A stretch of 64,000 nt of DNA. Source: an uncultured delta proteobacterium (GTDB lineage: Bacteria; Desulfobacterota; Binatia; UBA9968). Location: assembly GCA_963745035.1 (NCBI GenBank), contig CAVUVW010000013.1:416001-480000 (forward strand), given 5' to 3'. A program made the translations under genes and the position numbers. Position 1 is the stretch's first letter, and each line of letters opens with the position of its first letter. Of this stretch, positions 2,232 to 58,485 are shown one piece after another. The notes under the pieces are model-generated. The model saw nothing but the letters and a program-made list of their open reading frames with translations, had not been told where the DNA came from and made no database searches.

Positions 2232-3113
2232 CTAAGCACTCATCGGCGTCTTGGTGATGGTTTGAATAATCCGCTCTAGGTCGGCCAAGGCGTAATATTC
2301 GATTTCTATCTTGCCCTTACTTGAGCGCGCCTTCGGGATAAGGCGAACACGTGTTCCTAAAGCGCGCTGCAAATTTTCAACAATAGACTTCAAATCAGGA
2401 TCGATCACGGGCACGCCGCGGCGGCGTTTTCGGCCCACGAGCAGGAGCCGAACCATCTTTTCGGTTTCGCGGGTGGAAAGACCCTTGGCGATTACCTCGC
2501 GGCAAGCGGAAACGATTAAGGCTTCGGTGTGCAGACCGAGCAACGCCCGGGCCTGTCCCGCAGGCAGATTTCCTGCTGTAACTTCCTGCTGCACTTCGGG
2601 GGGCAAAGCGAGCAGGCGGAGCGAGTTAGCGATTGCCGGCCGGCTCTTGCCGACTCGTTCCGCCATCTCTTCTTGGCTCCATTGAAACTCCTCCTGCAGG
2701 CGCCGATACCCGCTCGCTTCTTCGATGGCGTTTAGATCCTCGCGCTGGAGATTTTCGACCAAGGCAAGTTGCAAAGCCTCATGATCGCTCGCGGCGCGCA
2801 CCACGACCGGCACTCGGCTGAGCCCAGCCTTCATGGCGGCGCGCCAACGCCGCTCGCCTGCGATCAACTCAAAGCCGTCGTTCTTGGGTCGGACGACCAG
2901 CGGTTGAATAATGCCTTGATTGCGAATGGACGCGGCCAGCTCTTCGATCTTCGCTTCATCGAAGGTGCGGCGCGGCTGAAACGGGCTCGGCGTAATGCGG
3001 TCGACCGCCACTTCGAGGGTCGCCCGCTGATCGCGACTTTCGTCGCTGGCTTGCGCGGCGCTCGGAATGAGCGCGCTGAGACCTCTACCCAAGCCCTTTT
3101 TCTGCGTCGACAT
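2232..3113 (-). CDS. parB: Chromosome partitioning protein ParB/Spo0J
   Basis: [13 protein letters not shown]-terminal peptide, [19 protein letters not shown] CTPase motif, [11 protein letters not shown]; ATG at 3113 with GGAG RBS. Confidence 0.96.
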
Positions 3114-3876
3114 AGTGCTCTCCACGGCTAATCAACTCCTTTGCTAAGTCTCGATAATCTTGCGCCCCGGTAGAGGCGGCATCGTACAGACAAATCGGTT
3201 TGCCGTAGCTCGGGCTCTCGCTCAGGCGCACGTTGCGGCGAATGATCGTGCGAAACAGCTTGTCGGGAAAGTGCGCGCGAATGTCCTCGACCACTTGATG
3301 AGAGATCCGATTACGGCTGTCGAACATCGTGATCACGATCCCTTCGAGCTTGAGTGTGGAATTCATGCCCTGCTGTACCAGCCTCATCGTCTCCAAAATC
3401 GCGCTTAGCCCCTCGAGCGCGTAGTACTCGCTCTGGATCGGAATCAACAGCGAGTCGGCGGCCGTCAGAGCGTTGAGAGTGAGCAACCCCAGCGACGGCG
3501 GGCAATCGAGCAAGACATAGTCATAATGAGCGCCAACGCCCGCCAGCGCTTCTTTGAGGCGATATTCTCTCCGGTCGGCACTCACCAACTCGACTTCGAC
3601 GCCGACGAGATCTTTGCTCGCCGGGATCAACATCAACTGGGGCAGCTCCGTCTGACGAAGCACTTCACCGAGAAAGCGGGTACCGTCCAACACTTGGTAG
3701 AGGCTATCCGCCAATTGCCGCTCAACGCCCAATCCCGTCGTCGTGTTGCCCTGAGGATCGAGGTCCACGAGCAAAGTTCGTTTCGCTTCCGAGGCGAGCG
3801 AGGCTGCCAGATTGATCGCTGTCGTAGTCTTGCCAACACCACCCTTTTGGTTCGCAATCGCAATGGTCCTATGCAC
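3085..3876 (-). CDS. parA: Chromosome partitioning ATPase ParA/Soj
   Basis: [11 protein letters not shown] deviant Walker [25 protein letters not shown]; GTG start; overlaps parB. Confidence 0.96.
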
Positions 3877-3890
3877 AAAAATCTCTGTAA

Positions 3891-3903
3891 AATCAGATAG
3901 TTA
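3891..3903 (+). promoter_or_regulatory. Candidate IHF-binding site upstream of parA
   Basis: AATCAGATAGTTA matches WATCARNNNNTTR in an AT-rich tract; short motif, could be chance. Confidence 0.3.
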
Positions 3904-3966
3904 TAAAGTTTAGGCCACTGCCGTAATAGATACCACAGTCGCAGCGGAATTGAAAGCAAAATAAAC

Positions 3967-3982
3967 CGTTTCACGTGAAACG
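3967..3982. promoter_or_regulatory. parS: parS centromere site
   Basis: Perfect palindrome CGTTTCACGTGAAACG matching the TGTTTCACGTGAAACA consensus, about 90 bp upstream of parA. Confidence 0.93.
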
Positions 3983-4079
3983 TGGTAGCCTAGGTGCGTG
4001 CTGCGATCGGAGATTGCCCGGACTTGGGGCCCGAGAGATCGCGCGTTCGATAGACGTAAGAACCCTAGAACCGAGCAGC

Positions 4080-5948
4080 TCAAGCGCTTTTTGCCTTGAT
4101 ATAAAACGAAAGGAGTGAAATGGCCGCCGGGGTGATTCCCGGGATACGCGCTGCTTGACCGAGCGAGCGCGGCTTGATCCTAGTCAGCTTCTCACAGACC
4201 TCACGGGAGAGTCCGCTGATGCGTGCGTAGTCGGTATTCTCCGGCAAACGTGCATGCTCCATCTTCTGGAAGCGTTCGACGATTTCCTGCTGTCGGGTTA
4301 CGTATCCCTGATATTTGATCTGGATTTCGACTTGAGCATCGACGTCCACCGGAAAACTCGGGATATCAGAGCGAAGGATTCTGAGTTGAGCGAGGGAGAG
4401 TTCCGGCCGTCGAAGTAGCTGTGCTAATGAGACTTGATTCCGCAGCGGCGCAGAGGGAAACGACTCGAGCAGCGAATTCGTTTCAGAGCTCGGCACAGCT
4501 TGGCTTCGCTCCAAATAGGAGGCTAACTCGAGAACAGCGCTCTGTTTGAGATCAACTCTCGCGAAGCTCTCATGACTAGCTAAACCGATCCTATGACCGA
4601 GCGAAGTCAGACGGAGATCGGCATTGTCTTCACGCAATAATAATCGGTATTCGGCTCGGGACGTGAACATGCGATAAGGCTCATCGTCGGTTCCTTTCGT
4701 GACCAAATCGTCGATCAACACACCGATATAAGCTTGCTCGCGCGACAATACCAAAGGTTCTTCGCCGCGCAGGCTAAGCACCGCATTGATTCCAGCTATA
4801 AGTCCCTGAGCCGCCGCTTCCTCGTAGCCCGTTGTGCCATTGATCTGACCGGCATGATAAAGACCGCGAACCGCCTTGGTCTCCAACGTCGGCTGAAGCT
4901 GGGTCGGCTCGAAAAAATCGTATTCGATGGCGTAGCCCGGCCGCATGATCTCCGCGGACTCGAGACCTTCGATCGAGCGCACCATTTCAATCTGCACGTC
5001 GAGAGGCAGACTCGTCGAGAGCCCGTTGGGATAGATCTCAACGGTGTCCAATCCCTCGGGCTCAAGAAATATCTGATGCCGCTCCTTGTCGGCGAAGCGA
5101 TGAATCTTGTCCTCAATGGAAGGACAATACCTTGGTCCGCGGCTCTTGATCACACCGGAATACATTGGCGAGCGATGGATGGCCTTCCGAATGATGTCAT
5201 GGGTCTTCTTGTTGGTATATGTAATATGGCAAGGAACCTGGCTCTGGGTAATCGTCGAGTTCGAAAACGAGAACGGCACCGGGCTTTCATCACCGGGCTG
5301 TTCGGTGAGCTTGGCGAAATCGATCGTGCGCGCATCGAGTCTTGGGCAGGTTCCGGTCTTGAGCCTGCCGACTTTGAACCCAAGCTTGACCAACGACTCG
5401 CTGAGACCATGGACGGCGAAATCCCCCGCACGGCCCGCAGAATAGTTCTTGTCGCCGATATGAATGAGCCCCTTCAGAAATGTTCCCGTCGTCAGAATCA
5501 CCCTACGACCAAAAAACTTTTCGCCGATCTGCGTCTCGACTCCCTTGACCTCGCCGTCCTCGACAACAAGGCTTTCAACGCTGCCTTGGCGCAGAGTCAG
5601 ACCAGCGGTATTTTCCAAAACGCGCTTCATCCGCTGACGATAAAGAGCCTTATCCGCCTGGGCTCGAGATGCACGCACCGCCGGCCCCTTCTTTGTGTTA
5701 AGGACGCGGAACTGAATTCCCGTGTCGTCGATTGCCCGACCCATCTCGCCGCCCAGCGCATCGATCTCCTTTACGAGATGCCCCTTGCCGATTCCGCCGA
5801 TCGCGGGGTTGCAGGACATTTGGCCGATGTGGTCTAGATTCAACGTCAACATCAACGTCGAACAGCCCATCCGGGCCGAGGCCAAACAAGCCTCGATACC
5901 GCCATGCCCAGCACCGACGACGATCACATCGAAAACTTTGTCGCTCAT
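4080..5948 (-). CDS. mnmG: tRNA U34 carboxymethylaminomethyl modification enzyme MnmG (GidA)
   Basis: [15 protein letters not shown] motif, [48 protein letters not shown]. Confidence 0.97.
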
Positions 5949-5964
5949 AGTTTCACGTGAAACA
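5949..5964. promoter_or_regulatory. parS: parS centromere site abutting the mnmG start codon
   Basis: AGTTTCACGTGAAACA, 15/16 match to consensus, immediately 5' of the mnmG ATG (5946-5948). Confidence 0.92.
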
Positions 5965-6021
5965 TTTCTGTTAAATCAATTTCAATTGCTTATTATTATA
6001 TGTATGATATTTATTATAAGA

Positions 6022-7399
6022 CTATTTTCCAATACAAAATTCTGCAAAAATACGTTCTAAAATATCATCGTTCTGAATTACTCCAGTGATTTCTTCGAGC
6101 GCAGCGCGGGCCTCGTTCAGATCCATCGCAACAAACTCAGGCGCATAGCCTTCCCCGAGCGAAGTCGCGGCGCGGCTTAGCGCAAACTGGCTTCGCTCAA
6201 GAGCGCTCCGATGTCGCAAATTGGTGATCACAACAGGCGTCTCCATTTCCGCATCTAGAGACGAGATCGCGCAAGCTTTGTTTGAGCGCAGCGATTCCTT
6301 CGCCGGTCTTTGCTGATACGGAGCGCACGTTGCGCCCGCCTACGAGCCGCCCAAGCTCGTTTACAGCGAGGCGCGTTGGCAAGTCCGCTTTGTTGATCAC
6401 GACAAGAATTTTTTTCGACGCCACCTGATCGAGTAACGACTTGTCATCCGTCGCCAGGGGCTGTGAGCCATCGAGAACCACGAGAACTGCATCGGCCTTG
6501 CTCACATGATGACGGCTGAGATCCACCCCGATACGCTCGATCTGATCCTCGCTCTCACGGATGCCGGCAGTATCCCAGAGCCGCGCAGGCAAACCATCGA
6601 GGCTGATCGCTTCTTCGATGACATCGCGGGTCGTCCCCGCTATCGGCGTTACGATCGCCCGGTCTTCGCCAAGCAAAGCATTCAGCAAACTCGATTTGCC
6701 GACGTTCGGGCGGCCGCAAATGCACACCGCAGCACCTTCCCGAAACAGCCTTCCCCAATCATAAGTATTTGAAATATCGTTAATTTTTCGGCTCAGGGCC
6801 GTGATCCTGTCGATCAGTTCGGAGCGCCGCAGGAGCTCGATTTCTTCTTCCGGAAAATCGATAGCCGCTTCGACCTGAACCAAAATGTCCAGAAGCCTTT
6901 CGCGCAACTCCACCACCCACTGCGACAGAACGCCATTGACTTGATCGAGCGCCATCCCCGCGCTCTTGTCAGTGCGCGCGCGGATGAGATCGAGCACCGC
7001 CTCAGCCTGAGCAAGATCCAGCCGTCCGTTGAGAAACGCGCGTTTGGTAAATTCCCCGGGCTCCGCTTGCCGAGCGCCCTGCCTGAGCGCGAGTCCCAAG
7101 ACCTCTCGCACAACATACGCGCCGCCATGGCAGTGAATCTCGACAACGTCCTCGCCGGTGTAGCTGCGCGGTTTGCGCATAATCGTCAGCAGCACTTCAT
7201 CGAGAATGCGTTCGTTTTGTGGATCGCGGATTTTGCCGTAGTGAAGGGTGTGCGACTTGAGCCTGCCGTTCTTACTACTAGGGCGAGTAAAGATCCGCTC
7301 CGCGATCGCTCCGGCATCAACGCCGCTGATCCGAATGATTGCGACACCGCCTTCGCCGGGCGGTGTTGCGATCGCTGCAATGGTATCTTCGCGGTACAT
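6022..7399 (-). CDS. mnmE: tRNA modification GTPase MnmE (TrmE); one apparent +1 frameshift near 6255
   Basis: DTIAAIATPPGEGGVAIIRISG, GRPNVGKSS, GTTRD, DTAG, NKAD in ORF 6197..7399; terminal IFAEFCIGK in ORF 6022..6246. Confidence 0.94.
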
Positions 7400-22435: not shown

Positions 22436-23740
22436 ATGAAGCATGACACCGCCAAAGTTCTGTCGATCAATGGACGCGAAGTCCGGGTAACCAATCCCGA
22501 CAAGCCGTATTTCACCAGGCAGACCAAGCTCTCGAAACTCGATCTCGTACGCTACTATCTTTCAGTCGCGCCGGGTGCCCTCCTAGGAATACGGGACCGT
22601 CCGCTGGTGCTGAAACGGTTCGTCGACGGTGCCGAAGGCGAAGCGTTCTATCAGAAACGCGCGCCGGAGAAGCGGCCGCCCTGGCTGCGAACGGTTACAT
22701 TGTCATTTCCATCGGGGCGCGAAGCAGAAGAGATCGTCGTCGATGACGTAGCCGGGCTTGCGTGGGTCGTTAACTTGGGCTGCATCGAGCTCCATCCCCA
22801 CCCTGTGCGCTCAACTGATCTCGAGTATCCGGACGAGCTGCGCGTCGATCTCGATCCGGGTCCCGGCGTCGCATGGGAGGATGTGCGTCGTGTGGCTCTC
22901 GAGGTGAAATCGTTTCTCGAGGAGATGGGACTTCGCGGCTGGCCCAAGACGAGCGGCTCACGAGGTATGCACGTGAACGTGCGGATCGAGCCGCGCTGGA
23001 CGTTCGTCGAGGTGCGCCGCGCCGCGCTCGCGTTATCACGCGCAGTCGAGCGACGTCTCCCGGAACTGGCAAGCTCGAAGTGGTGGAAGGAGGAACGCCA
23101 CGGGGTGTTCCTCGACTATAACCAGAACGCAAAAGATCGCACGACATGCTCCGCCTATTCCGTGCGCCCACTGCCGGACGCACGCGTCTCCACGCCGCTT
23201 CACTGGGACGATGTTCCCGACTGCGATCCCGCCGATTTCACCGTGCTCACGATTCCGAAACGTTTCGCGGAAATCGGTGATCCGCACGCGGATATGGACT
23301 CCGCGCCGGGTTCTCTCGAAAGACTGCTTGGACTTGCCGCGGAAGACGAAGCAGCGGGCCTCGGCGACGCGCCCTGGCCACCCCACTTTCGCAAGATGGA
23401 AGGTGAAGCGCCGCGCGTGCAGCCTTCGCGCGCCCGCTCCGCGGCGAAGAAATCCCCGACCAAAAGGCCACGGACGAAAATGCCGCTTCTGGTAGTCGCG
23501 AACTCACCGGACAAAGCGGCGGCGCTCGCCGGTCTGGAAAGGTGGAAGAGTAAACATCCCGACGTAGCCGTGCTTCTCGCAGTGGATGACGTGTTGATCG
23601 ACTCCATGCGCGGCAGGTCATCAACCTGGACACGCGTACGAGTCAACCTCAGACACGTGCCCGAAGAGTTGCGCCCCCAACAAGAGACTCCCGACCCGGA
23701 CAACGATCCCACGCGTGAATGGCGCAACCGGCGCGCATAA
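22436..23740 (+). CDS. LigD-type primase-polymerase domain protein (Prim-PolC-like) with C-terminal extension
   Basis: TNPDKPYF, FYQKRAP, PDELRVDLDPGPG, KTSGSRGMH, KWWKEER.GVFLDYNQNAKDRT. Confidence 0.9.
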   Translation: MKHDTAKVLSINGREVRVTNPDKPYFTRQTKLSKLDLVRYYLSVAPGALLGIRDRPLVLKRFVDGAEGEAFYQKRAPEKRPPWLRTVTLSFPSGREAEEIVVDDVAGLAWVVNLGCIELHPHPVRSTDLEYPDELRVDLDPGPGVAWEDVRRVALEVKSFLEEMGLRGWPKTSGSRGMHVNVRIEPRWTFVEVRRAALALSRAVERRLPELASSKWWKEERHGVFLDYNQNAKDRTTCSAYSVRPLPDARVSTPLHWDDVPDCDPADFTVLTIPKRFAEIGDPHADMDSAPGSLERLLGLAAEDEAAGLGDAPWPPHFRKMEGEAPRVQPSRARSAAKKSPTKRPRTKMPLLVVANSPDKAAALAGLERWKSKHPDVAVLLAVDDVLIDSMRGRSSTWTRVRVNLRHVPEELRPQQETPDPDNDPTREWRNRRA

Positions 23741-24751: not shown

Positions 24752-25840
24752 TCAGCGGCCACCGGCGAAAATCACCGCCAGCTCTTCGGGTGGAACGACT
24801 TCGAGTTGGGCGTAGGTGCACTCCTTCGGCTTCTTGTCCGTGCGCCAGCGGCGAAACTGTGCGGTGTGGCGGAAACGGTCGCCCTGCATGTGGTCGTAAG
24901 CGACTTCGACGACCAACTCGGGACGCAGAGGCTCCCAGGACAAGTCCTTGCCGCCGCTCCAGCGGCTGTGGCCGCCAGGCATGCGATGCGCGGTCTCACC
25001 ATCCCCTGATGCCTGCTCGGCCCAGTCGCTCCAAGGGTGGGCGGCGCGAGCGTTCTTCCGGTAAGGCTCCAAGAATTCCACCAGCTCGCGCCGCTTCTTG
25101 TCTGTGAAGCTCGCGCAGACGCCGACATGCTGCAACGCGCCGTTGTCATCGTAAAGCCCGAGCAGGAGGGAGCCGACGGCGCTCCGCTCGCCCCTCTTGT
25201 GCCAGCGAAACCCGGCGACGACACAATCGCAGTCGCGCTCGTGTTTGACCTTGAGCATCACGCGTTTATTGGGCTCGTAGGTTCCCGCTACCGGTTTGGC
25301 GACAACGCCATCGAGACCGGCGCCCTCGAAGCGGCGAAACCAATCGGTCGCTGTGCTCAATTCGCCGGTTGCCGGCGTCAGGTGAAGCGGGGGCGCCAGA
25401 GATGAGAGAAGAGATTCGAGCATGCGCCGGCGCTCTTGGAACGGCACGCCGCGCAGATCCCGCTCTCCCTCGCCGAGCAGATCGAAAAATACAATGGACG
25501 CCGGGATTTGCTTTGAAAGCAGCTTGATCCGCGAGGCGGCGGGATGAATACGGAGCTGCAAAGCGTCGAAGTCGAGCACGCCGTCCTGCGCAACGACGAT
25601 TTCCCCGTCAAGCACACAGCGGGACGGCAACTGTGAGCGGAGCGGCTCGAGTAGTTCTGGAAAATAGCGGTTCAGTGATTTTTCGTCGCGGCTCTGGATC
25701 AGCATCTCGTCGCGGTCGCGGAAAACCAGCGCACGGAACCCATCCCATTTCGGCTCGAAAATCCACGCTCCGGCTCTCGGCAGTTCGCCGATTCGCTTGG
25801 CGAGCATCGGCAGAACCGGTGGATTCACAGGAAGATGCAT
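24752..25840 (-). CDS. ligC: ATP-dependent DNA ligase, LigC-type
   Basis: PMLAK, FEPKWDGFR adenylation motif, LDGEI, FEGAGLDGVVAK, KVKHER, SRWSGGKDLSWEPLRPELVVEVAYDHMQG. Confidence 0.92.
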   Translation of the reverse strand: MHLPVNPPVLPMLAKRIGELPRAGAWIFEPKWDGFRALVFRDRDEMLIQSRDEKSLNRYFPELLEPLRSQLPSRCVLDGEIVVAQDGVLDFDALQLRIHPAASRIKLLSKQIPASIVFFDLLGEGERDLRGVPFQERRRMLESLLSSLAPPLHLTPATGELSTATDWFRRFEGAGLDGVVAKPVAGTYEPNKRVMLKVKHERDCDCVVAGFRWHKRGERSAVGSLLLGLYDDNGALQHVGVCASFTDKKRRELVEFLEPYRKNARAAHPWSDWAEQASGDGETAHRMPGGHSRWSGGKDLSWEPLRPELVVEVAYDHMQGDRFRHTAQFRRWRTDKKPKECTYAQLEVVPPEELAVIFAGGR

Positions 25841-26040: not shown

Positions 26041-27177
26041 TCACTTCGCGCTCTTCAGAAACGGCTTCCAGTTCCATTCGAAGTTCGCATCCGTGTACGC
26101 TTCGGATGGCATAAGCGAAGTCAGGCCGCGTTTGGCGAGCTCTCCTTCGAATTTTTCTCTCACCCACTTGTCCTCGTTGACGTACTCGATCTGATCTTTG
26201 GCGCGATCTTCGACTTTCTCGGCGTGGCCATGGAACTGCATCGGCGGATGTAGCGCGAGATAGCGCGCGGGCTCGCCGCCGGCGTTGAAATGCTGGTGGA
26301 ACCATTTGTTCGGCGGCACGAAGCAGCTCGCTTCGTGCCAGGGCACGACGACTTTGTCTTTTCCTTCTTCCCACATGATCGAGTAACCCTCGCCGACCGG
26401 AATGACGATCACCCGGCCCGGGCCGTGGCGGTGCGCCTTCTTGTATAGCCGTGCGTCGAAGACCGACATATGGCAGGACATTTCGGAATCGGGAAACTGA
26501 ATGTAAACACTCCGGCCGCCGGCGCCCCGCCGCGCGTTGCTGTCGAGCTTGTCCCAGGCGCGCATGTCAGGGAAAAAATTGCCGTACCAGTAGGCGCGCC
26601 GGCCCCAGGATTCGTCGAGATTGGCCTGCGAAACCATCTTGGCCTCGGAGTAGAAATCCATCTCGTTCTGGATATCCGCGCCTTCGTAATTATTGCCGAA
26701 GATGAAATTCACGTCGCGCACGCCGGAGAGAGTGAGCGGCATGTAGTTGTAATGGAGCAAGCGCACCGGCTTGTCGCCCTGCATGTTGGTGAACTGGTGG
26801 GTGTAGTTGTGCGGCACCAAAAACATGCTGTGCTTTTGCCACTCGAAAGTTTTCTTCGGCCGCTTTTCGCCGGCCCAGATAGTCGTGAGGCCGCGCCCTT
26901 CGACGACGTAGACAATCTCGTCGAGCGCGAACTTGAGCGGCGGCAAGGTCTTTCCCGCGGGAATCTCGGTGACCCGCGCTGAGGTGACGCCTTCCTGGCC
27001 GACGAGTTGAATGAAAGCGGAATTGCACTCGCGCGCCTTCCACCAGCCGAGCTCCAGGGTGCGCAAGTCCTCGATGTAATAGCCACGGTGAACGGGTATT
27101 CCCTGCGCCTCCATCCACTCGTCGTAGGTGTAATACTTGCTCCACATTTTCCGCTCGCCTTGCATCGCCTTGGACAT
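26041..27177 (-). CDS. Bicupin protein B (gentisate-dioxygenase-like fold), paralog of 30696..31829
   Basis: N-cupin DEIVYVVEGRG..FEWQKHSMF; C-cupin KKAHRHGPG..PPNKWFHQHFN; ATG 27177 with GGGAGG RBS. Confidence 0.85.
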   Translation of the reverse strand: MSKAMQGERKMWSKYYTYDEWMEAQGIPVHRGYYIEDLRTLELGWWKARECNSAFIQLVGQEGVTSARVTEIPAGKTLPPLKFALDEIVYVVEGRGLTTIWAGEKRPKKTFEWQKHSMFLVPHNYTHQFTNMQGDKPVRLLHYNYMPLTLSGVRDVNFIFGNNYEGADIQNEMDFYSEAKMVSQANLDESWGRRAYWYGNFFPDMRAWDKLDSNARRGAGGRSVYIQFPDSEMSCHMSVFDARLYKKAHRHGPGRVIVIPVGEGYSIMWEEGKDKVVVPWHEASCFVPPNKWFHQHFNAGGEPARYLALHPPMQFHGHAEKVEDRAKDQIEYVNEDKWVREKFEGELAKRGLTSLMPSEAYTDANFEWNWKPFLKSAK

Positions 27178-27246
27178 GACGCTCTTCCCTCCCAATGGAC
27201 TTTGGCCATTCATATCACCACCGTAAATTGAAACAAATTGCGGCCG

Positions 27247-28107
27247 CTATTTCGCCAGCACTACGAGGATCGTGCCGACCACCGTCAAGAGCGCGCCGGT
27301 GATGACCCGCAGATTGATCACTTCCAGGTCTCTCAAAAAAATTGCCGTGAAAAGCAACGTCAGCACCGGATTCGAGCTGACCAGCGGCTCGACGATGACC
27401 ACTTTGCCGTGGCTCAGCGCATAGAATACCGAGAGCATCGCCGCGGTGTTGATAAAGCCGGCGGGAAACAGCCAGGCGGCGCTTCGGCGGCTCAGCTTGA
27501 AGGCGACCTTGCCGCCTTGAACCTGCAACAGCGCGAATGAAAAGAGCGCCGCCGAGCCGGCCGTCACCGCTCCCGCCAACACCGGAATGGGGATTTGATC
27601 CAGGCCGGCCTTGCGGAGAATCGCCGAGGCGCCGAACGCCATGGCGCCGACCAACGGATAGATGACATCGAGCTTGCGCCACTCGCCCGTGGCCGGTTTC
27701 GAGAGCGACAGAACCATCGTGCCGCCGATCACGAGTAGGGTGCCGGCGATATTCTGCGGCACCCAAGCCTCGGCGAGAAAAGTCACGGCGAAGATCGACG
27801 CGAAGATCGGCGACGAGTTGGCGATCGGCACCGATCGAGCCACACCGATCTTCTCGATGCCCACGTAGCTCAGAGTGCGGCCGATGCCGGGAGCGAATAT
27901 TCCTGCGATGACGAAGATCAGCACGGCCGGCGACCACAAGGCCGAAAGCGGCGCGAAGAAGGGCACCAAGATCCACAACAGCACGGCGCTCATGGATAGT
28001 GAAATGAACGATCCGGTCATCGCGTTCGATTCGACCAGGCCGCGGCGTATGAGAATATGCGCGATGGAAAAACAGAGCGCGCCCTGAAACGAAAAATAGA
28101 TATCCAT
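27247..28107 (-). CDS. EamA/DMT family transporter
   Basis: About 10 TM helices, GIEKIGVARS..NSSPIFA, ALSHGKVVIVEPL. Confidence 0.88.
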   Translation of the reverse strand: MDIYFSFQGALCFSIAHILIRRGLVESNAMTGSFISLSMSAVLLWILVPFFAPLSALWSPAVLIFVIAGIFAPGIGRTLSYVGIEKIGVARSVPIANSSPIFASIFAVTFLAEAWVPQNIAGTLLVIGGTMVLSLSKPATGEWRKLDVIYPLVGAMAFGASAILRKAGLDQIPIPVLAGAVTAGSAALFSFALLQVQGGKVAFKLSRRSAAWLFPAGFINTAAMLSVFYALSHGKVVIVEPLVSSNPVLTLLFTAIFLRDLEVINLRVITGALLTVVGTILVVLAK

Positions 28108-28115
28108 GAAGCTGC

Positions 28116-28976
28116 TTACCTCGCTGTGACCACGAGGACCGTGCCCGCGACCGTGAAGAGCGCCCCCAGGATGATGCGCCCGCTGAGCGTTTCAATCTGA
28201 CGGAGAAAAATACTGGTCCAGAGAATGGTCAGTAGCGGATTGCAGGCGACCACCGGCTCGACCCGCACGATCTGGCCGAGGTTGAGGGCGGCGAAGAAAG
28301 ACAGGATCGCTCCGGAATTGAGCACCGCGGCGGCGAACAGCCAGCGGCTGCTCTCTCGATGGAAGCGCAGTGCCGCTGTTCCGCCCCGGCATTGAATGAT
28401 GAACAACAAGGTCACGAACGCCGTGACGAGAGTCACCGCGGCCGCGAGCAGAGGCTCCGGAATTACGGTCAAGCCGGCCTTGCGCAAGTTGGTCGAAATC
28501 CCGAAGACCAGCGCGCCCAGAAGCGGATAGACGAGGTCCTTCTTCTGCCATGCGCGATCTTCCAGCTTGCCGGAGGAAAGAATCACCACGCCGACGATCA
28601 CCAAGAACGTCCCAACGATGTTTTGCAGGACCCAGCGCTCCCCCAGTAACAAAACCGCCAGGATCGAGGAGAAAATCGGCGAGGTATTGACGATCGACGA
28701 GGCGCGCGCGACGCCGAGCCGTTCCATGCCGATATAACCGAGGGTCTGGCCGATGGCCGGGGCGAATACGCCGCCCGCGATGAAATAGCCGACGTTCGGA
28801 TTGAGCAGGGAGGAAAGCGGAACAAAAACGACGAGGAGGAACCAGAAGATGACGGTGCTGGTGCCCAGCGAGATCAACGAGCCGGTGAGCGCATTGGACT
28901 GCAGCAGGCCGCGCCGGACGAATATATGGGTGATCGAAAACAGCAGTGCGGACTGGAGCGAAAAGTATTCGGCCAT
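28116..28976 (-). CDS. EamA/DMT family transporter (paralog of the adjacent gene)
   Basis: GMERLGVARAS..NTSPIFS, ALNLGQIVRVEPV; ATG at 28976. Confidence 0.88.
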   Translation of the reverse strand: MAEYFSLQSALLFSITHIFVRRGLLQSNALTGSLISLGTSTVIFWFLLVVFVPLSSLLNPNVGYFIAGGVFAPAIGQTLGYIGMERLGVARASSIVNTSPIFSSILAVLLLGERWVLQNIVGTFLVIVGVVILSSGKLEDRAWQKKDLVYPLLGALVFGISTNLRKAGLTVIPEPLLAAAVTLVTAFVTLLFIIQCRGGTAALRFHRESSRWLFAAAVLNSGAILSFFAALNLGQIVRVEPVVACNPLLTILWTSIFLRQIETLSGRIILGALFTVAGTVLVVTAR

Positions 28977-28991
28977 GCGCGTGGTTGCAAC

Positions 28992-29016
28992 AAAAAGGGC
29001 CGCTTCGTCGCGGCCC
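28992..29016 (-). terminator. Intrinsic terminator-like hairpin after the eutA-like gene
   Basis: Minus strand GGGCCGC-gacgaa-GCGGCCC-TTTTT. Confidence 0.6.
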
Positions 29017-29065
29017 CTATCTGCCGAAATTGCGACCACGCTCGGTTTGCGCGGTCTCTGTTCGG

Positions 29066-30606
29066 TCAGTCCGCCTGGGTCGTGGGAAACATGAGCGACT
29101 TGACGGTGACTGGAATCACTTCCGTAATGCCCAGGCACTCGCCGATATCGATGTAGTCCAAGTCGCCGACTTCGATGCCGTCGATGGCGATGATGTCGCG
29201 CGTCACTTTGAATTCATCCCTCAGCATGCCGCCGAGCGACTTGGCGATGTCGAGGTCGAGGGTCAAATAGAGCGGGCACTTCGGATCGTCGGCGTCTTTG
29301 AGAATCTCGGCGACTCCTTCGGCAATGCGCCGCACCGATTGGTACGTCGGCACGCCGCTCACGTTGAGCGACAGCGCCAGGCCGGCGGTGAACTGGGTCA
29401 AGTCGAACTTGCGCAAGGATTGCTTGAGCGCGTCGCGTGACCGACTCGCCCTCGCGAATGGGCGCCTGAATCACCTTGAGGCCGTGCACCGGCAGGGCCT
29501 TTTCGTTGGAGACGTAGCTCGTGTTGCCGCTCGCCTGAATCGTATATTCGCCGGCGCCGATGACCGTGGCGCGGATGCCTTCGATCGGTTCGCGCAAAAC
29601 GTCCTTGGGCAGCTTCTTCAAATACTCGCGCATGTTCTTGCCGAGCACCGGACCGATGTCGCCATAGGCTTTCGGATCGCGATCGTAGACATGCTCGGAA
29701 ACGCCGCCGGAAAAAACGATGTGCTGCACCTGCTTGAAGCCTTTATAGTTGACGAAAGGCGGCGTGACCATGAGCGAGCTTGCCATCGGCGAGTTGGGTC
29801 CTTCCTCGATGATCTCGAAGAGGATCTTCGCCATGTAGGCGCCGAAGTCTTCTTTCATCTTGTCGTTGATCTGTCTGGCCCAGCTCGACTTTGTAGCCAA
29901 GCTCTTTCATCATCGTCCGCCCCGGATCTTCGATCCGCGTGATCTTGTCTTTTTCGTCGAAAGCGATCAGCCGAGCGCCAACGCTGATCGACGCCGTTTG
30001 GCTCACAACGCCGTCTTCGACCAGAGAAAACTTGGTGGTGCCGCCGCCCATGTCGACGTTGAGCACGGTTTTATGCTCGCTTTTGGACAGATCCACCGCG
30101 CCGCAGCCGTAGGCCGCGAGCAGCGCTTCGTGGTTGTGGCCCGCCGCGGCGCAGATAAATTTGCCGGAGTATTTGGCGAAGTTCTCGACGATCGGTTGGG
30201 CGTTTTCTTTCTTCAGCGCCTCGCCGGTGATGATCACTGCGCCGGTGTCGACGTCTTCGGGGGTTAACCCTGCGTCTTTGTAGGCTCCGTGAATGAAATC
30301 GTTCACCTTATCGGTGTCGATCTTGGTGGCCGAGGTATAAGGCGTCAGCATGATCGGCGAACGATAAAGCACCTCGCGGTTGGTGACTCTAAACTTGCCC
30401 GATAGCGACGCGCCCTCGCGCCGCAACGTAATCAAGGAAAAAATCAGATGCGAGGTCGAAGAGCCGATGTCGATGCCCACGCTCTTGAGCGAGAACATCT
30501 CCAGCCCTTCGATATCGGTGACGATCTCGTCTTCCTTGATGATGAAATTGTCGGGATGGTCGTGATCGTAAATATCGTCGTGCATGGTCTTGCCTCGGTC
30601 CGCCAT
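29066..30606 (-). CDS. eutA: EutA-like (ethanolamine ammonia-lyase reactivase family) ASKHA ATPase; two apparent +1 frameshifts (about 29871, 29436)
   Basis: SVGIDIGSSTSHLIFS, YRSPIMLTP, DTGAVIITGEA, DMGGGTTK, FSGGV, IRATVIGAG, DYIDIG..IPVTVKSLMF across three ORFs. Confidence 0.85.
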
Positions 30607-30622
30607 TTTTTGCTTCCTTTAG

Positions 30623-30658
30623 AAAAAAGGAATCCCCGCTCGCTGGAGCGGGGATTCC
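30623..30658 (-). terminator. Strong intrinsic terminator between bicupin A and the eutA-like gene
   Basis: 13-bp perfect stem GGAATCCCCGCTC/GAGCGGGGATTCC, 4-nt loop, followed by T6 on the minus strand. Confidence 0.85.
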
Positions 30659-30695
30659 ACAAACGACTTCTGGGAGATTTTCGCCGTTCTGGCTC

Positions 30696-31829
30696 TTACT
30701 GTTTGCCCATCGCTTTGGACCACTCGTAGTCCGGGTTGCTGTAGCACTCGGCCGGCATTTCGCTCTTGATGCCGCGCTTGGCCAGCTCGTCTTCGAACTT
30801 CTTGCGAATAAACGGATCTTCGCGCGGATACTCGATCTGGTCCTTGGCGCGGTCTTCGACCTTCTCCGCGTGGCCGTGAAACTGCATCGGCGGATGGAGC
30901 GCGAGATAGCGCGCCATGTCGCCGCCGGCGTTGAAGTGCTGATGGAACCATTTGTCCGGCGGCGTGATCATGCTGCATTCGTGCCACGGGCAAACGATCT
31001 TTTCCTTCCCCTCTTCCCACATGATCGAATATCCCTCGCCGGCCGGGATGATGATCGCGCGGCCCGGGCCATGGCGGTGCGCCTTCTTATAGGTCTTCGG
31101 CGCGAACACCGACATATGCGCGGTTAGCTCGGAATTCGGGAACTGCATGAACACGCTCTTCCCGCCGGCGCCGCGCCGCTCGTTGGCGTCGAGCTTGTTC
31201 CAGGCGCGCATGTCGGGAAAAAAGTTGCCGTACCAGAAAGCGCGCATGCCCAGGCCTTCATCGGCGTCCTTGGCCTGCACCATCTTGGCTTCGGAGTAGA
31301 AGTCGCCGTCCGCCACCGTGACTTTCGGCTCGTAGGGATTATTGAAATACATGTCCGGCTCCGGCAACGCGGACATCGCCATGGGCATGTAGCTGTAATG
31401 GAATATCCGGAGCGGCTTATCGCCCTGCATGTTGCTAAACACGTGCCAGTGATTGCGCGGCACGAGAAACATCGAATGCTCCTGCCACTCGAAGTTCTTC
31501 TTCGGCTTGCCCTCGCTCGCCCACACGGTGGTGAGACCGCGGCCGGCCAAGACATAAACGATTTCGTCGAGCGCAAATTTCACCGGCGGCAAGGATTTTC
31601 CCGGCGGAATTTCCGACACCCGCGACGCGCTCACGCCTTCCTGCCCGAGGAGCTGGATGAACGCCGATTTGCAGCCGCGCTCCTCCCACCACTCCAGTTC
31701 GATGGTGCGCAGATCTTCGATGAAGTAGCCGCGGTGAATCGGAATCCCTTTCGATTTCATCCAGCGATCGTAGGTAAATTCCTTGCTCCACATCGTGATG
31801 ACAGGTTCTTGTTTGGCGGTCTCGGCCAT
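30696..31829 (-). CDS. Bicupin protein A (gentisate-dioxygenase-like fold)
   Basis: DEIVYVLAGRG..WHVFSN; KKAHRHGPG..PPDKWFHQHFN; AGGAGG RBS; 30 bp downstream of atpC. Confidence 0.85.
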   Translation of the reverse strand: MAETAKQEPVITMWSKEFTYDRWMKSKGIPIHRGYFIEDLRTIELEWWEERGCKSAFIQLLGQEGVSASRVSEIPPGKSLPPVKFALDEIVYVLAGRGLTTVWASEGKPKKNFEWQEHSMFLVPRNHWHVFSNMQGDKPLRIFHYSYMPMAMSALPEPDMYFNNPYEPKVTVADGDFYSEAKMVQAKDADEGLGMRAFWYGNFFPDMRAWNKLDANERRGAGGKSVFMQFPNSELTAHMSVFAPKTYKKAHRHGPGRAIIIPAGEGYSIMWEEGKEKIVCPWHECSMITPPDKWFHQHFNAGGDMARYLALHPPMQFHGHAEKVEDRAKDQIEYPREDPFIRKKFEDELAKRGIKSEMPAECYSNPDYEWSKAMGKQ

Positions 31830-31859: not shown

Positions 31860-32276
31860 CTATCTTCTTGCTTCCCGGCTGGCAACCTGAAGCCTCGCGG
31901 CCGCTCGGCGCAGCGCCTCTTCGGCCGCCTGCCGCTCCTCATCCTCGTAGTTGGTCGCCGCCAAAGTTTTCTCGGCCTGCTCCTTGGCGTACTGCGACCG
32001 GGCGACATCGATCTCCGCAGGAAATTCCGCCGATGACGCCAGCACGGTCATCACATTGTCCAGCACCTCGGCATAGCCACCGCTGATCGCCAGGCTGGTT
32101 TTGGTCGTTCCCTGCTTGAAGCTCAGCTCGCCGGGGACGAGGGTGGACAAAAACGCGATGTGGTTCGGCAGCACGCCGAATTCGCCCAACTCGCCCGGCG
32201 CGGTCACTTCGTCGACTTCCTCGTCGAGCACCAGCCGGCTCGGCGTCACCACTCTCAGTGTGATCTTGTCTGCCAT
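31860..32276 (-). CDS. atpC: ATP synthase F1 epsilon subunit
   Basis: LRVVTPSR, GEFGVLPNH, ISGGYAEV, EIDVAR. Confidence 0.96.
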   Translation of the reverse strand: MADKITLRVVTPSRLVLDEEVDEVTAPGELGEFGVLPNHIAFLSTLVPGELSFKQGTTKTSLAISGGYAEVLDNVMTVLASSAEFPAEIDVARSQYAKEQAEKTLAATNYEDEERQAAEEALRRAAARLQVASREARR

Positions 32277-44902: not shown

Positions 44903-47182
44903 CTAGTCGCGCCGATCCGACTTGCCCTCGAGCGGCGCCAGCAGCGCGCGCAGCAGGCCGATCACTTCATTGCTGTTACGAATGTTGTACTGCGCATGGG
45001 TTGCCGACATGCCGACCCGAATGGAGAAGGCGGAATCAGGCAGCGCTCTGAAGAAATCCTCGTCGGTGGTGTCGTCGCCGATGCCAAGGATGAAGTCGTA
45101 ATCGTCATGACCCATCCAAGTTAACGCGGCGCCGCCCTTATTGACGCCGGCGTGGCGAACCTCCACGACCTTATCGCCCTGAACCACCTGGAGGTCGGTT
45201 TTGGCGATGAGTTTCAGAAGATGATCGATCAACTCCGGGGCGCAAAGCCCCGCCTGTTCCGGGTCCGCCATACGGTAGTGCCAGGCGACCGATTCCTCCT
45301 TGTCTTCGACCAGCGCGCCGGGCAGCCGGTCGGCATAGGTTTCGAGAATCGGCAGCAACTCGCGCTTCCACTCACTCGCCAGGGGCTTGGCCCGGCGCCA
45401 AGGTTGATCGGCCAACTTGAGCCAAGCGCCATGCTCCGCCACCAAGCCGAGAGGCAAGTCGCCGAGCCACTCGTCGAGCGTGCGGCGGTCGCGGCCGCTG
45501 GCGACGACCACGGTATTTTCCGGCTCCGCGGCAAGCGCGCGCAAGAGATCGCGTCTGGTGGGATCGAGTCCCGCCAATCCCGGATGACGAACAAGCGGCG
45601 TCAGCGTGCCGTCATAGTCCAGAAAGAACAAGCGGCGGCGGCTGGCGCGATAGCGCGCGACGATTTCCTGGCGCGCGGCGGGAGACAGCAGCTTGAACTC
45701 GATGCGGCCTTGCACCTCGCGCATGCCGAGCAGAGTCGCGAGAAAATCGCCCGCCCACCGCGTCACGTTGTAGCGCCTGAGCCGCCGCTGCATGAGGCGG
45801 TGGCGTTTCTGTTGCTCGGGCAGCGGCATTCTCAGCGCGTCTTTGAGCGCCCCGGCGATCTCGCCGCGGTCGTTCGGGTTGATAATGATCGCCTCGGGCA
45901 GTTCCTTGGCGGAGCCGGCCATCTCGCTCAGAATCAGCACCCCGCCGTCGGCTCGCGTGGAAACATATTCCTTGGCGACGAGATTCATGCCGTCGCGCAG
46001 CGGGGTCACCAGGCAAACATCGCTGACCGCGTAAAGCGCCGCCAGCGAGGAAAAGGCCACCTGGCGGTATTGATAGACCACCGGCGTCCAACCAACCCGC
46101 CCAAAGCGGCCGTTGATTTTGCCGACCAACTCCTCGATCTGGCGCTTCATGACCTCGTATTGAACGACGCCGATGCGCGAGGGCACGACGACCATCAACA
46201 AGGCCACCTTGCCGTGATGCTCCGGACAGTTTTCGAGAAATAGCTCATAACCTTCCAGCCGGTTCGATATGCCCTTCGAATAATCCAGCCGATCAACCGA
46301 AAGGATCAGCTTCATCCCGGCGATCGCGGTCTTGAGTTCGCGTATTTCCCGCTCGGTTTCATCGCCGCGCGGGGCGCCGGAGAATTTTTCGACGTCAATC
46401 CCCATCGGAAAGGTATCCACCCGCACCACGTGGTCCGGCGCCAACACCTGGCTCATTTGATGCTCGTAGCCGAGTATTCGCAGCACGCATTGCAGAAAGT
46501 GGTGCGCGTACTCGTAGGTGTGAAAGCCGACGAGGTCGGCGCCCAAAAGTCCCTCCAGGATGTCGCGGCGCCATTCGCCCGGCAGCAGGCGGAACACCTC
46601 GAATGACGGAAAAGGAATATGCAGAAAAAACCCGACCGTCAGTTGCGGCAAGCGAGCTTTGAGAAACCGCGGCAGCAGCATCAAATGATAATCGTGCACC
46701 CACACGACGTCGTCGGGCCGAAGAATCGTCTCCAGCGCATCGGCGAACAACTGATTGATCTGTTTGTATTGTTCCCAAAACGACGCTTGGTACAGCGCGA
46801 AAGACGGGAAATAGTGGAACAGCGGCCAGATCGTCGCGTTGCAAAACCCGAGATAAAACCGCTCCATCTGCTCTTCGGTAAGAAACACCGGATAGGAGCG
46901 AAATCGCGCCAAGGATTCCTGAATGACTTGCTTTCGGAGCGACTCATCGATGCTGCCACCCGGCCAACCGACCCAGAGATGCTCGGCGGGAAGAGCCCCC
47001 GCTTGCTCGCGCGATTCACGAAACGAGGCCAGTCCGGTAACCAAGCCGCCGGCGCTCGGATGAAACAGCGGGCGGCCTTCTTGGATTTCGACGTTGAAAG
47101 GCAAGCGGTTCGATACGATCACCAATCGCCGCCCGCTCAACTCCGCCGCCCCGTTGGTTTTTGCTATGGAAGGCTCCGTCAC
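44903..47182 (-). CDS. otsAB: Bifunctional trehalose-6-phosphate synthase/phosphatase
   Basis: VSNRLP, WVHDYHL, FFLHIPFP, DRLDYSKG, RDGMNLVAKEY; HAD domain DYDGTL, GDDTTDED; start (GTG 47182) uncertain. Confidence 0.94.
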   Translation of the reverse strand: MTEPSIAKTNGAAELSGRRLVIVSNRLPFNVEIQEGRPLFHPSAGGLVTGLASFRESREQAGALPAEHLWVGWPGGSIDESLRKQVIQESLARFRSYPVFLTEEQMERFYLGFCNATIWPLFHYFPSFALYQASFWEQYKQINQLFADALETILRPDDVVWVHDYHLMLLPRFLKARLPQLTVGFFLHIPFPSFEVFRLLPGEWRRDILEGLLGADLVGFHTYEYAHHFLQCVLRILGYEHQMSQVLAPDHVVRVDTFPMGIDVEKFSGAPRGDETEREIRELKTAIAGMKLILSVDRLDYSKGISNRLEGYELFLENCPEHHGKVALLMVVVPSRIGVVQYEVMKRQIEELVGKINGRFGRVGWTPVVYQYRQVAFSSLAALYAVSDVCLVTPLRDGMNLVAKEYVSTRADGGVLILSEMAGSAKELPEAIIINPNDRGEIAGALKDALRMPLPEQQKRHRLMQRRLRRYNVTRWAGDFLATLLGMREVQGRIEFKLLSPAARQEIVARYRASRRRLFFLDYDGTLTPLVRHPGLAGLDPTRRDLLRALAAEPENTVVVASGRDRRTLDEWLGDLPLGLVAEHGAWLKLADQPWRRAKPLASEWKRELLPILETYADRLPGALVEDKEESVAWHYRMADPEQAGLCAPELIDHLLKLIAKTDLQVVQGDKVVEVRHAGVNKGGAALTWMGHDDYDFILGIGDDTTDEDFFRALPDSAFSIRVGMSATHAQYNIRNSNEVIGLLRALLAPLEGKSDRRD

Positions 47183-47332
47183 AGGAATACTCTGCTTTGG
47201 TCGTTGGAAAGGCCGCGCCCTCGGGCAGCACATGCTACGCTGGCGGCGCTGCAGGTCCGCAACGCCCGTCCGGCGTTTATAATATCACTTCAAAACCGCC
47301 CTTCACAGAAGAGTACGGAAAAATCCTCCGCT

Positions 47333-58259: not shown

Positions 58260-58287
58260 ACTTTCCCCCTGTGACTTCTATTGCCTT

Positions 58288-58484
58288 ACTTATATATAAA
58301 TTCAAGAAGTAATAGTAGAGGCTGTGGACAAGGCGGAAAACTTCGCTTTGGCGAGGAAAATCAAAACTCTAGCTTGTGACTTAAAACGGGAGCTTAATCT
58401 CGTTTTGCACTTCTTTAACGACGCGTTCGGATGAGGGCGTGGTCTTTCACAGCAACCTTGACCGTTAATCACAGGATATTCACA
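58288..58484. other. oriC: oriC unwinding module between dnaA and dnaN
   Basis: Minus strand TTTTCCGCC-TTGTCCACA (DnaA boxes)-GCCT-CTACTATTACTTCTT (DnaA-trios)-AT-rich TTTATATATAA; further degenerate boxes TTAATCACA (58465) and ATATTCACA (58476). Confidence 0.85.
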
Positions 58485-58485
58485 G

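Follow-up and report, generated by a model that had tools for sequence, protein, structure and literature searches.

A large clade of EutA-family ATPases is tied to bicupins and not to a B12 enzyme

A 64,000-nucleotide stretch of DNA from an uncultured bacterium, called the window here at its full length, carries a gene for a EutA-like ATPase next to a gene for a bicupin, which is a protein with two cupin barrels in one chain. The window corresponds to G000:C13:416001-480000 of a 7.43-Mb genome assembled in 28 contigs (92.6% complete, 5.8% contamination), whose relatives are metagenome-assembled genomes (MAGs) labelled Candidatus Binatia. The order of genes on the minus strand is atpA, atpG, atpD, and atpC (36268 down to 31863), bicupin A, the EutA-like ATPase, the permeases EamA1 and EamA2, bicupin B, and a LigD-type ligase. 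An initial annotation of the window had described the five genes from bicupin A to bicupin B as co-oriented, and all five were found on the minus strand where it had placed them. There are 33 nt between the stop of atpC and the start of bicupin A, and EamA2 starts 8 nt past the stop of EamA1. Read along the minus strand, the features of the locus are:

31863..32276, minus strand: atpC, ATP synthase epsilon subunit, last gene of atpAGDC (Pfam ATP-synt_DE_N and ATP-synt_DE)
30699..31829, minus strand: bicupin A, 377 amino acids (Cupin_1, 27.9 bits; Cupin_2, 27.1 bits)
30629..30658, minus strand: terminator- or attenuator-like hairpin with a 13-bp stem and a T-run behind it, in the spacer that separates the EutA-like gene from bicupin A (z = -3.7)
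29875..30606, minus strand: EutA-like ATPase, piece 1, first half of the ASKHA (acetate and sugar kinase/Hsc70/actin) fold (PF06277 positions 3-208, 220.5 bits)
29872..29874, minus strand: first +1 insertion, frame-shifting, one base more than in three relatives (alignment column 778)
29439..29870, minus strand: EutA-like ATPase, piece 2 (PF06277 positions 221-348, 81.5 bits)
29435..29436, minus strand: second +1 insertion, frame-shifting, one extra base relative to three relatives (alignment column 1214)
29069..29434, minus strand: EutA-like ATPase, piece 3, C-terminal domain (PF06277 positions 360-474, 79.1 bits)
28995..29018, minus strand: second terminator-like hairpin, in the spacer between the EutA-like gene and EamA1 (9 pairs and a T-run)
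28119..28976, minus strand: EamA1, EamA/DMT (drug/metabolite transporter) permease, 286 amino acids (EamA, 87.3 bits, two repeats)
27250..28107, minus strand: EamA2, EamA/DMT permease, 286 amino acids (EamA, 82.6 bits, two repeats)
26044..27177, minus strand: bicupin B, 378 amino acids (open reading frame 26044-27213; likely start at 27177, as in relatives)

The three pieces of the EutA-like gene together span positions 3-474 of the 475 positions of PF06277, the gathering cut-off of which is 27 bits; intact EutA paralogs from the same genome score 412.9 and 389.6 bits. The paralogy of the two bicupins along their whole length, suspected from the first inspection, is borne out by an identity of 66-68%, and that of the EamA pair by an identity of 53%. 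Each permease contains two matched EamA stretches, which places both in the EamA/DMT family.

The pairing of the bicupin with the EutA-like ATPase is conserved in Binatia. Bicupin A was used to find 75 Binatia loci, in 70 of which the EutA-like gene adjoins a bicupin, with one more case on the opposite strand. The same gene order recurs in 70 of these 75 loci, which is more than expected by chance. A second bicupin is present in most of them, and the gap between atpC and the first bicupin has a median of 26 nt, being at most 100 nt in 62 of 65 related loci. The number of EamA genes per locus is zero, one, or two, with homologues in 36 of the 75 loci; in a cross-phylum set of 80 loci, EamA homologues occur in only five loci, all of the Binatia type. 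The EamA pair and the adjacency to ATP synthase genes are Binatia-specific additions that lie outside the conserved core.

The linkage extends to other copies of the genes within the order. Of the 25 EutA-family genes in five genomes from the order, 17 are located within 2 kb of a bicupin on their own strand, although these genomes of about 4 Mb each contain only 9-63 bicupins; 16 of the 25 have a bicupin directly upstream, at a distance of 80-285 nt. The source genome contains a second, divergent pair, in which the bicupin directly upstream of the EutA paralog L016 shares only 31-35% identity with bicupin A. Another EutA paralog of this genome, L015 (G000:C13:1683330-1684751, minus strand), has no bicupin nearby and ends in a histidine-rich C-terminal tail. 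Paralogs of the L015 type from Binatia, which also include L153, L154, and L134, have no bicupin as a neighbour, adjoin a DUF4175 protein and in some cases carry the histidine-rich C-terminal tail; L015 itself is located near a MoxR-type AAA ATPase. The complete genome G145 from the same order has 63 matches to the bicupin profile and 8-9 EutA-family genes, the numbers in others of the order being 9-10 and 4, so that G145 represents a large lineage-specific expansion.

Pairs of the same kind occur far beyond Binatia. The EutA-like profile matched 3555 cluster representatives at E <=1e-3 and 1128 (clusters at 50% identity) at E <=1e-30, canonical EutAs included. The cross-phylum set of 80 loci was fetched with an alignment of 27 diverse representatives, and L016 alone as the query reached only Binatia. 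The loci are labelled as Alpha- and Betaproteobacteria, Chloroflexota, Actinomycetota, Armatimonadota, Paenibacillus, Asgard archaea, and Binatia. A bicupin directly adjoins the EutA-like gene, on its strand and no more than 300 nt away, in 51 of the 80 loci, which carry at least six phylum labels; in eight others it is positioned farther off or on the other strand. The distance matrices of the EutA-like proteins and their adjacent bicupins are correlated with r = 0.81 for 60 pairs, a value inflated by shared ancestry, and the maximum reached with shuffled pairs is 0.13. Among paralogous pairs within single genomes, the nearest neighbour is the same in both matrices in five of nine cases. Conserved linkage of cupin and EutA, the lack of which would have spoken against the initial annotation, is present in Binatia as well as across phyla, and the association of the two genes is real.

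No partner enzyme that depends on B12 accompanies the gene. As stated in the initial annotation, families of B12-binding or microcompartment proteins are absent from the open reading frames of the window that were scanned, and EutB (PF06751) was not found anywhere in the source genome. Nor does EutB occur in any of the 61 sampled genomes of the order. Of these, 52 reach a completeness of 90% or more with no more than 5% contamination, and several consist of a single contig; EutA-family genes are present in all 61, usually three to five in each. In a sample of the class outside the order, none of 71 genomes contains EutB, and in a sample of 101 genomes of the phylum the only matches outside this genome were short, weak, and FtsA-like. 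Homologues of E. coli EutB or EutC do not occur within 5 kb of the EutA-like gene in any of the 80 cross-phylum loci. EutB was absent from four of five genomes behind these loci; the fifth, Paenibacillus thalictri, has a canonical EutA gene directly upstream of EutB and a cupin-linked EutA copy on another contig. The client that a functional ethanolamine ammonia-lyase reactivase requires was found neither in the source genome, nor in the sampled genomes of its order, nor around the 80 loci.

The position of the EutA-like protein in the family was evaluated with a quick maximum-likelihood tree of 98 rows. Six canonical rows, which are EutB-adjacent or enterobacterial and form a small sample with long branches, are split from the 92 others with a support of 98 (Shimodaira-Hasegawa-like approximate likelihood ratio test, SH-aLRT), and the copy from the window is among the 92. 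Next to branch is a small Asgard clade without cupins, followed by a clade of 89 rows (support 99), to which all 63 cupin-adjacent rows belong. The window copy thus does not group with the EutB-adjacent EutAs, as far as the small and long-branched canonical sample can tell; the canonical outgroup is thin because the E. coli EutA query returned only enterobacterial proteins. The Asgard EutA-likes (L166, L196, and L210, from Thor- and Heimdallarchaeota records) form a clade of their own, lack a histidine-rich tail, and have no bicupin nearby. The neighbours of L196 include a gamma-glutamyltranspeptidase and parts of a peptide ABC (ATP-binding cassette) transporter.

Public records call relatives of the gene 'ethanolamine ammonia-lyase reactivating factor EutA', and the record of E. 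coli EutA carries the name 'reactivase'. If these names applied, the window would contain the gene of a normal ethanolamine ammonia-lyase reactivase, its eutBC genes would be located in the unassembled part of the genome, for which a completeness of 92.6% leaves room, and the cupins would be unrelated neighbours. We regard this explanation as extremely improbable. It is contradicted by the lack of EutB in all 61 sampled genomes of the order, 52 of them with a completeness of 90% or more, and by a cupin linkage that is kept across phyla. Furthermore, the gene belongs to a clade apart from the canonical EutAs, and its match to NF007992, the best of the NCBIfam equivalog models NF007991-NF007994, sums to 192.2 + 62.2 + 69.5 = ~324 bits, compared with a cut-off of 598. 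The clade to which the EutA homologue belongs is large and associated with bicupins rather than with a B12 enzyme. The absence of EutB, the conserved cupin linkage, and the separate clade all favor the idea, already put forward in the initial annotation, that its client is not a B12 enzyme, and they speak against the concern that eutBC might reside elsewhere in the genome with this EutA nested among canonical reactivases.

The EutA-like gene of the window needs three reading frames, since one extra base is present at each of two sites when compared with three orthologous loci. Taken as given, the sequence could belong to a decaying locus, in which the two frameshifts have turned the gene into a true pseudogene and the cassette is no longer functional in this organism. 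Neither insertion lies within a homopolymer run, and no public sequencing run contains this very stretch, the best one having just 0.46 of the sampled words; the contigs used for comparison come from near-identical organisms in three studies. Nevertheless, a pseudogene is quite unlikely. All of the pieces are open, and each is 89-96% identical in protein to the ortholog L018. The ratios of synonymous to non-synonymous codon differences from L018 are 83:13, 50:6, and 45:13 for pieces 1, 2, and 3; since the differences are mostly synonymous behind the shifts as well, selection also acted on the pieces located there. Among the 67 related loci that hold both the N- and C-terminal EutA pieces, a single open frame was found in 65, and the two pieces share one frame in 66. 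The exceptions are L085, which switches frame, and L064, in which the frame stops early.

At 29435/29436, the contigs of all three covering runs (X1, X5, and X6) lack one base at full depth. The sole run covering 29872-29874 is X6, in which two contigs each omit one base, at 29872 and at 29874, and these omissions explain only part of the depth (2.3 of 4.6 and 2.3 of 9.1). Other genes of the assembly are broken alike. Several of the 26 bicupin matches in this genome are interrupted, and the paralogs that are split or contain in-frame stops (C4:42929-43981, C13:60810-61796, C7:17490-18585, C16:24034-25096, and C10:91905-92922) fit a raised rate of insertion and deletion errors in the assembly. 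Breaks in the atpD frame occur in other long-contig MAGs of the group (L037 and L070). The insertions are private to this assembly and find no support in the near-identical contigs, which answers the reservation of the initial annotation that the frameshifts might prove real. Judged from these sequence comparisons, the two shifts are most likely assembly errors or, with lower likelihood, very recent mutations.

All ATPase motifs of the EutA-like protein are preserved. The nucleotide-binding blocks DIGSSTSH, DTGA..TGEA, DxGGGT.K, and FSGGVSE do not vary among 17 sequences and line up with the corresponding blocks of E. coli EutA (b2451). Motifs of both ASKHA halves are present, and the AF2 (AlphaFold2) model has the ASKHA fold. 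Residues 40-508 of the ortholog are 34% identical to residues 6-467 of the E. coli protein, with all ASKHA motifs kept. The protein from the window shares the family and architecture of canonical EutA; however, its gene adjoins a bicupin, scores below the NCBIfam cut-offs, falls in a separate clade, and has no EutBC in its genome or order. The solved folds nearest to the model are those of Ppx/GppA phosphatases, ROK kinases, and ATP-dependent activators of 2-hydroxyacyl-CoA dehydratases and benzoyl-CoA reductase, and the weak Pfam matches are to BcrAD_BadFG (32.1 bits), Ppx-GppA, and Hydantoinase_A. A Foldseek search with the model retrieved generic ASKHA proteins. Sequence searches of solved structures gave nothing close for the ATPase, nor did plain sequence searches of the same kind for the bicupin. 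The known activity of the EutA family is the exchange of the cofactor of ethanolamine ammonia-lyase, not the phosphorylation of a substrate. A mechanistic template for a reactivase is provided by DdrAB and GdrAB, the ATP-dependent reactivases of diol and glycerol dehydratases, which have an actin/Hsp70-like ATPase subunit and release the damaged cofactor; their clients are B12 enzymes. DdrAB and GdrAB are not among the Foldseek matches listed for the EutA-like model, which is not evidence either way. A role as a client-bound ATPase, as in canonical EutA, is plausible for the EutA-like protein.

The EutA-like protein differs from canonical EutA in an N-terminal extension of about 39 amino acids with the motif MH[DE]..HxH, which canonical EutA lacks. 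The likely true start of the protein from the window is the ATG at 30585, which gives the N-terminus MHDDIYDHDHPD, and the relatives L028, L045, and L051 start at this methionine. EutA-like proteins of relatives begin with Met-His-Asp-Asp, and typical starts are MHD or MHE followed by HxH. The pattern H[DE]x2-6HxH, located 26-40 amino acids ahead of the ATPase core, is present in 62 of the 92 non-canonical rows, in neither of two canonical rows, and in none of 120 enterobacterial EutAs. At least three histidines occur in the N-terminal extension or the C-terminal tail in 80 of the 92 non-canonical rows, compared with zero of two canonical ones. The N-terminal tail is disordered in the AF2 model, with a predicted local distance difference test (pLDDT) score of about 30 for residues 1-35 and of 79.5 overall. 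EutA-family proteins of 671-831 amino acids from low-GC organisms (P0207, P0214, P0219, P0241, P0243, and P0270) have an extra N-terminal region of about 200 residues; a fusion to a cupin was considered for these six, but the region has a CxxC..HH pattern without a Pfam match and is not a cupin.

The Met-His-acidic start resembles that of HypA, the nickel metallochaperone of [NiFe]-hydrogenase and urease. In HypA, Ni(II) is bound at the N-terminal MHE, by the amine of the N-terminus together with His2 (PMC7055735). The likeness is confined to the N-terminal motif, and the remainder of the EutA-like protein is an ASKHA ATPase of unrelated fold, which lacks the zinc CXXC domain of HypA and carries the ATPase in the same chain, without a HypB partner. 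The EutA-like proteins are therefore not members of the HypA family, and the resemblance, which concerns a possible way of working, may serve as a lead to a metal-holding tail.

Bicupin A was modeled with a pLDDT of 73.9 and a predicted template-modelling score of 0.78, and the AF2 model aligns with bicupins over residues 33-343, in agreement with two cupin barrels in one chain. His251, His253, His296, and His298 in the C-terminal barrel are invariant in 26 aligned sequences and in all 16 near-full-length paralogs from the genome, whereas the N-terminal barrel has no HxH pair. Bicupin B has the same four histidines. A difference in the metal site between EutA-linked and orphan bicupins was looked for and not found, as 16 of 16 paralogs keep the four residues. 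In the structural comparison with VIA-align, the best match is gentisate 1,2-dioxygenase 3bu7 (Z 18.9; root-mean-square deviation, 3.8; 267 aligned), followed by salicylate 1,2-dioxygenase 2phd (Z 18.7; 3.5; 250 aligned). 3bu7 is also the only solved chain reached by the sequence profile of the bicupin (E = 1.4e-5). These dioxygenases have the bicupin fold in common with bicupin A, and their metal site is lined by histidines; however, the sequence identity is 9-16%, and the histidine cluster of bicupin A is in the C-terminal barrel. A search of the protein Atlas returned only unnamed cupin clusters.

The complex of bicupin A with the intact ATPase ortholog L018 was predicted, as had been suggested in the initial annotation, from alignments of our own, which makes the calibration counts that follow only rough. 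The predicted complex scores 0.62, compared with 0.00 for the best of three controls, and this mark is attained by 116 of 157 solved complexes and by two of 215 mismatched pairs. Agreement between the runs amounts to at least 48% of contacts, and the pLDDT of the partner is no lower than 71. On the side of the bicupin, the predicted contact is formed by loops of the N-terminal barrel (residues 77-79, 97-101, 110-116, and 132-137), and on the side of the ATPase by the C-terminal domain (L018 residues 361-362, 418-425, 451-464, and 495). The model supports binding of the bicupin by the EutA-like ATPase.

Genes next to the pair in other phyla provide a hint to the pathway. The neighbours were surveyed in 15 cupin-linked loci (130 open reading frames) and 11 further loci, which were hand-picked for taxonomic spread and are not a random sample. 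In the 15 cupin-linked loci, Rieske/LigXa-like oxygenases, TctA/TctC transporters, and major facilitator superfamily (MFS) transporters occur in four loci each. BenE, UbiD decarboxylases, IclR/MarR regulators, and class II aldolases are also among the neighbours, and one locus contains NicO and NikR. In five of the 15, there are components of an ABC importer that combines a double permease with a TOBE ATPase, an arrangement known from ferric-iron importers. ABC importer genes (double-domain permease, TOBE ATPase, and SBP_bac_6/8/11) were seen beside the EutA-like genes of L222, L223, L226, L157, L198, L209, L163, and L185.

The 11 further loci are mostly cupin-free. One of them, from a Natronospirillum record (L213:3956-6503), has a EutA-like gene directly after genes for a LigB-family extradiol dioxygenase and a LigXa-like oxygenase, and the genes that follow encode an RraA-like aldolase, an MFS transporter, and an IclR regulator, in a cluster resembling those for protocatechuate or gallate. 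Judging from this arrangement, the LigB-type enzyme is a possible second type of client. The neighbour genes in other phyla point to the catabolism of aromatic acids and to ring-cleaving metalloenzymes as clients. None of these aromatic-catabolism genes is located beside the pair in the window, and the neighbours there, ATP synthase and LigD, give no such hint. A link to nickel through neighbouring NicO and NikR genes was considered and set aside, as these genes are too rare to name the metal.

Based on these observations, we propose, with about an even chance of being right, that the EutA-like protein is an ATP-driven metal-loading or reactivating factor for gentisate-dioxygenase-like bicupins. 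The conserved core would consist of such a bicupin metalloenzyme and its dedicated EutA-family ASKHA ATPase. The ATPase would dock on the bicupin and use ATP to drive the insertion, exchange, or restoration of the metal in the histidine-lined C-terminal site, in parallel to canonical EutA, which swaps the damaged cofactor of ethanolamine ammonia-lyase. The flexible N-terminal tail with the MH[DE]..HxH motif would hold the metal ion. In this Binatia locus, the pair is located at the end of the ATP synthase operon and is accompanied by a second bicupin paralog and by two EamA permeases, whose cargo is probably the substrate or product, which may be an aromatic acid or another organic acid. The initial annotation had considered an ATP-dependent reactivator or metal-loading factor, and this idea gains from the histidine-rich N-terminal motif and the predicted complex; we infer the role in metal handling, the identity of the metal, the substrate, and the binding, the last by prediction alone. 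XylT-type [2Fe-2S] ferredoxins reportedly reactivate catechol 2,3-dioxygenase. Like the helper proposed here, such a ferredoxin is an accessory protein dedicated to a ring-cleaving dioxygenase whose gene adjoins its own, and it reportedly restores the inactivated metal centre of that enzyme; however, it works by electron transfer instead of ATP, the ferredoxin is small and differs in fold, and the client is an extradiol dioxygenase and not a cupin.

Several observations weigh against this proposal. There is no bicupin within 5 kb of the EutA-like gene in 21 of the 80 cross-phylum loci, some of which are on short contigs. Thirteen of the 16 bicupin paralogs in the source genome, and about 58 of the 63 in G145, have no adjacent EutA; as most bicupins lack a EutA neighbour, any helper that they need would act in trans or serve only some of the paralogs. 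The assignment of the bicupin as a dioxygenase is soft, because seed globulins (Z 18.3-17.7) and oxalate decarboxylase (17.3) come near the gentisate and salicylate dioxygenases, and Foldseek places MncA and OxdC first for the bicupin model, with generic bicupins at a template-modelling score of about 0.44. The L016-type EutA paralog has no histidine motif. NicO homologues were found within 5 kb in only three of the 80 diverse loci and in none of the 75 Binatia loci, and NikR in one of the 80. Conservation of the interface was tried as a marker of partnership, and the contact residues turned out to be equally conserved in orphan and EutA-adjacent paralogs, so the predicted interface does not mark a specific partnership. 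Finally, the support for binding is the confidence of one model in its own prediction.

The same pairing could also represent a two-component enzyme, in which the EutA-like protein is a small-molecule kinase or an ATP-dependent activating subunit and the bicupin carries out a metal-dependent step on the activated substrate; ATP-dependent carboxylases of the hydantoinase and acetone-carboxylase kind offer a comparison. The ASKHA fold, with kinases and dehydratase or reductase activators among the nearest solved folds, and the weak matches to BcrAD_BadFG, Ppx-GppA, and Hydantoinase_A are in line with such an enzyme. So is the tight coupling of the genes, which are separated by 7-150 nt in the majority of the 51 loci with an adjacent pair, and the predicted complex fits a stable hetero-complex as well as it fits a chaperone. 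However, conserved histidine-rich N- and C-terminal tails are typical of metal handling and not of kinases, and the protein is a full-length homologue of EutA, a family whose activity is cofactor exchange. The majority of bicupin paralogs have no ATPase partner, and in L213 the EutA-like gene follows a LigB-type dioxygenase in place of a cupin. The spacer between bicupin A and the ATPase, which is about 105-115 nt long and folds strongly in near relatives, is terminator-like and suggests unequal expression of the two genes. We therefore consider a two-component enzyme unlikely, although it deserves more credit than either a pseudogene or an ordinary EutA.

Only 20 of 67 loci have a T-run of at least four in the spacer, and in more distant relatives the gap between bicupin and EutA is short and unstructured. 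The whole region contains eight terminator-like sites, compared with a shuffle expectation of 7.8. Since this count equals expectation, the second hairpin (28995..29018) is on its own weak evidence. A promoter scan of the region gave results at the level of chance.

The remainder of the window contains dnaA, dnaN, parA/parB, mnmG, and mnmE (57156-59730, minus strand; 2235-7399, minus strand), which places it at the replication-origin region. The ATP synthase genes are split, with atpB on the plus strand (62168-62959), separated from atpAGDC by about 26 kb. A LigD primase-polymerase domain (22436-23737, plus strand) and an ATP-dependent ligase domain (24755-25840, minus strand) are encoded by separate genes on opposite strands just downstream of the cassette, and a ligase gene is also positioned 3' of bicupin B in the relatives L050 and L061. 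A fused trehalose-6-phosphate synthase/phosphatase gene, encoding 776 amino acids, is located at 44906-47233 on the minus strand.

A description of a bicupin-EutA pair was not found in the literature, subscription journals being outside the coverage; the initial annotation likewise knew of no characterised system of this kind. To our knowledge, the only known role of EutA is in the repair of a single B12 enzyme; a large sister clade of EutA is tied to cupin metalloenzymes instead. The culturable carriers named in the records include a Micromonospora strain and Paenibacillus thalictri, the latter with EutA of both kinds. We tentatively suggest, and hold it slightly more doubtful than probable, that the cupin-linked EutA clade is an undescribed class of metallochaperones or reactivases, in which an actin-fold ATPase with a HypA-like N-terminal Met-His-acidic metal hook would spend ATP on supplying or renewing the metal, be it nickel, iron, or another divalent ion, in ring-cleaving dioxygenases with a histidine-lined site; these would for the most part be bicupins, with a LigB-type enzyme in at least one lineage. 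If this is true, many entries named 'ethanolamine ammonia-lyase reactivating factor' are unrelated to ethanolamine or B12, and a widespread misannotation would be corrected. If metal loading or repair is indeed the function, the clade would add an ATP-driven, actin-fold design to the short list of metallochaperones, and it would account for the lasting activity of some oxygen-sensitive ring-cleaving enzymes in soil bacteria.

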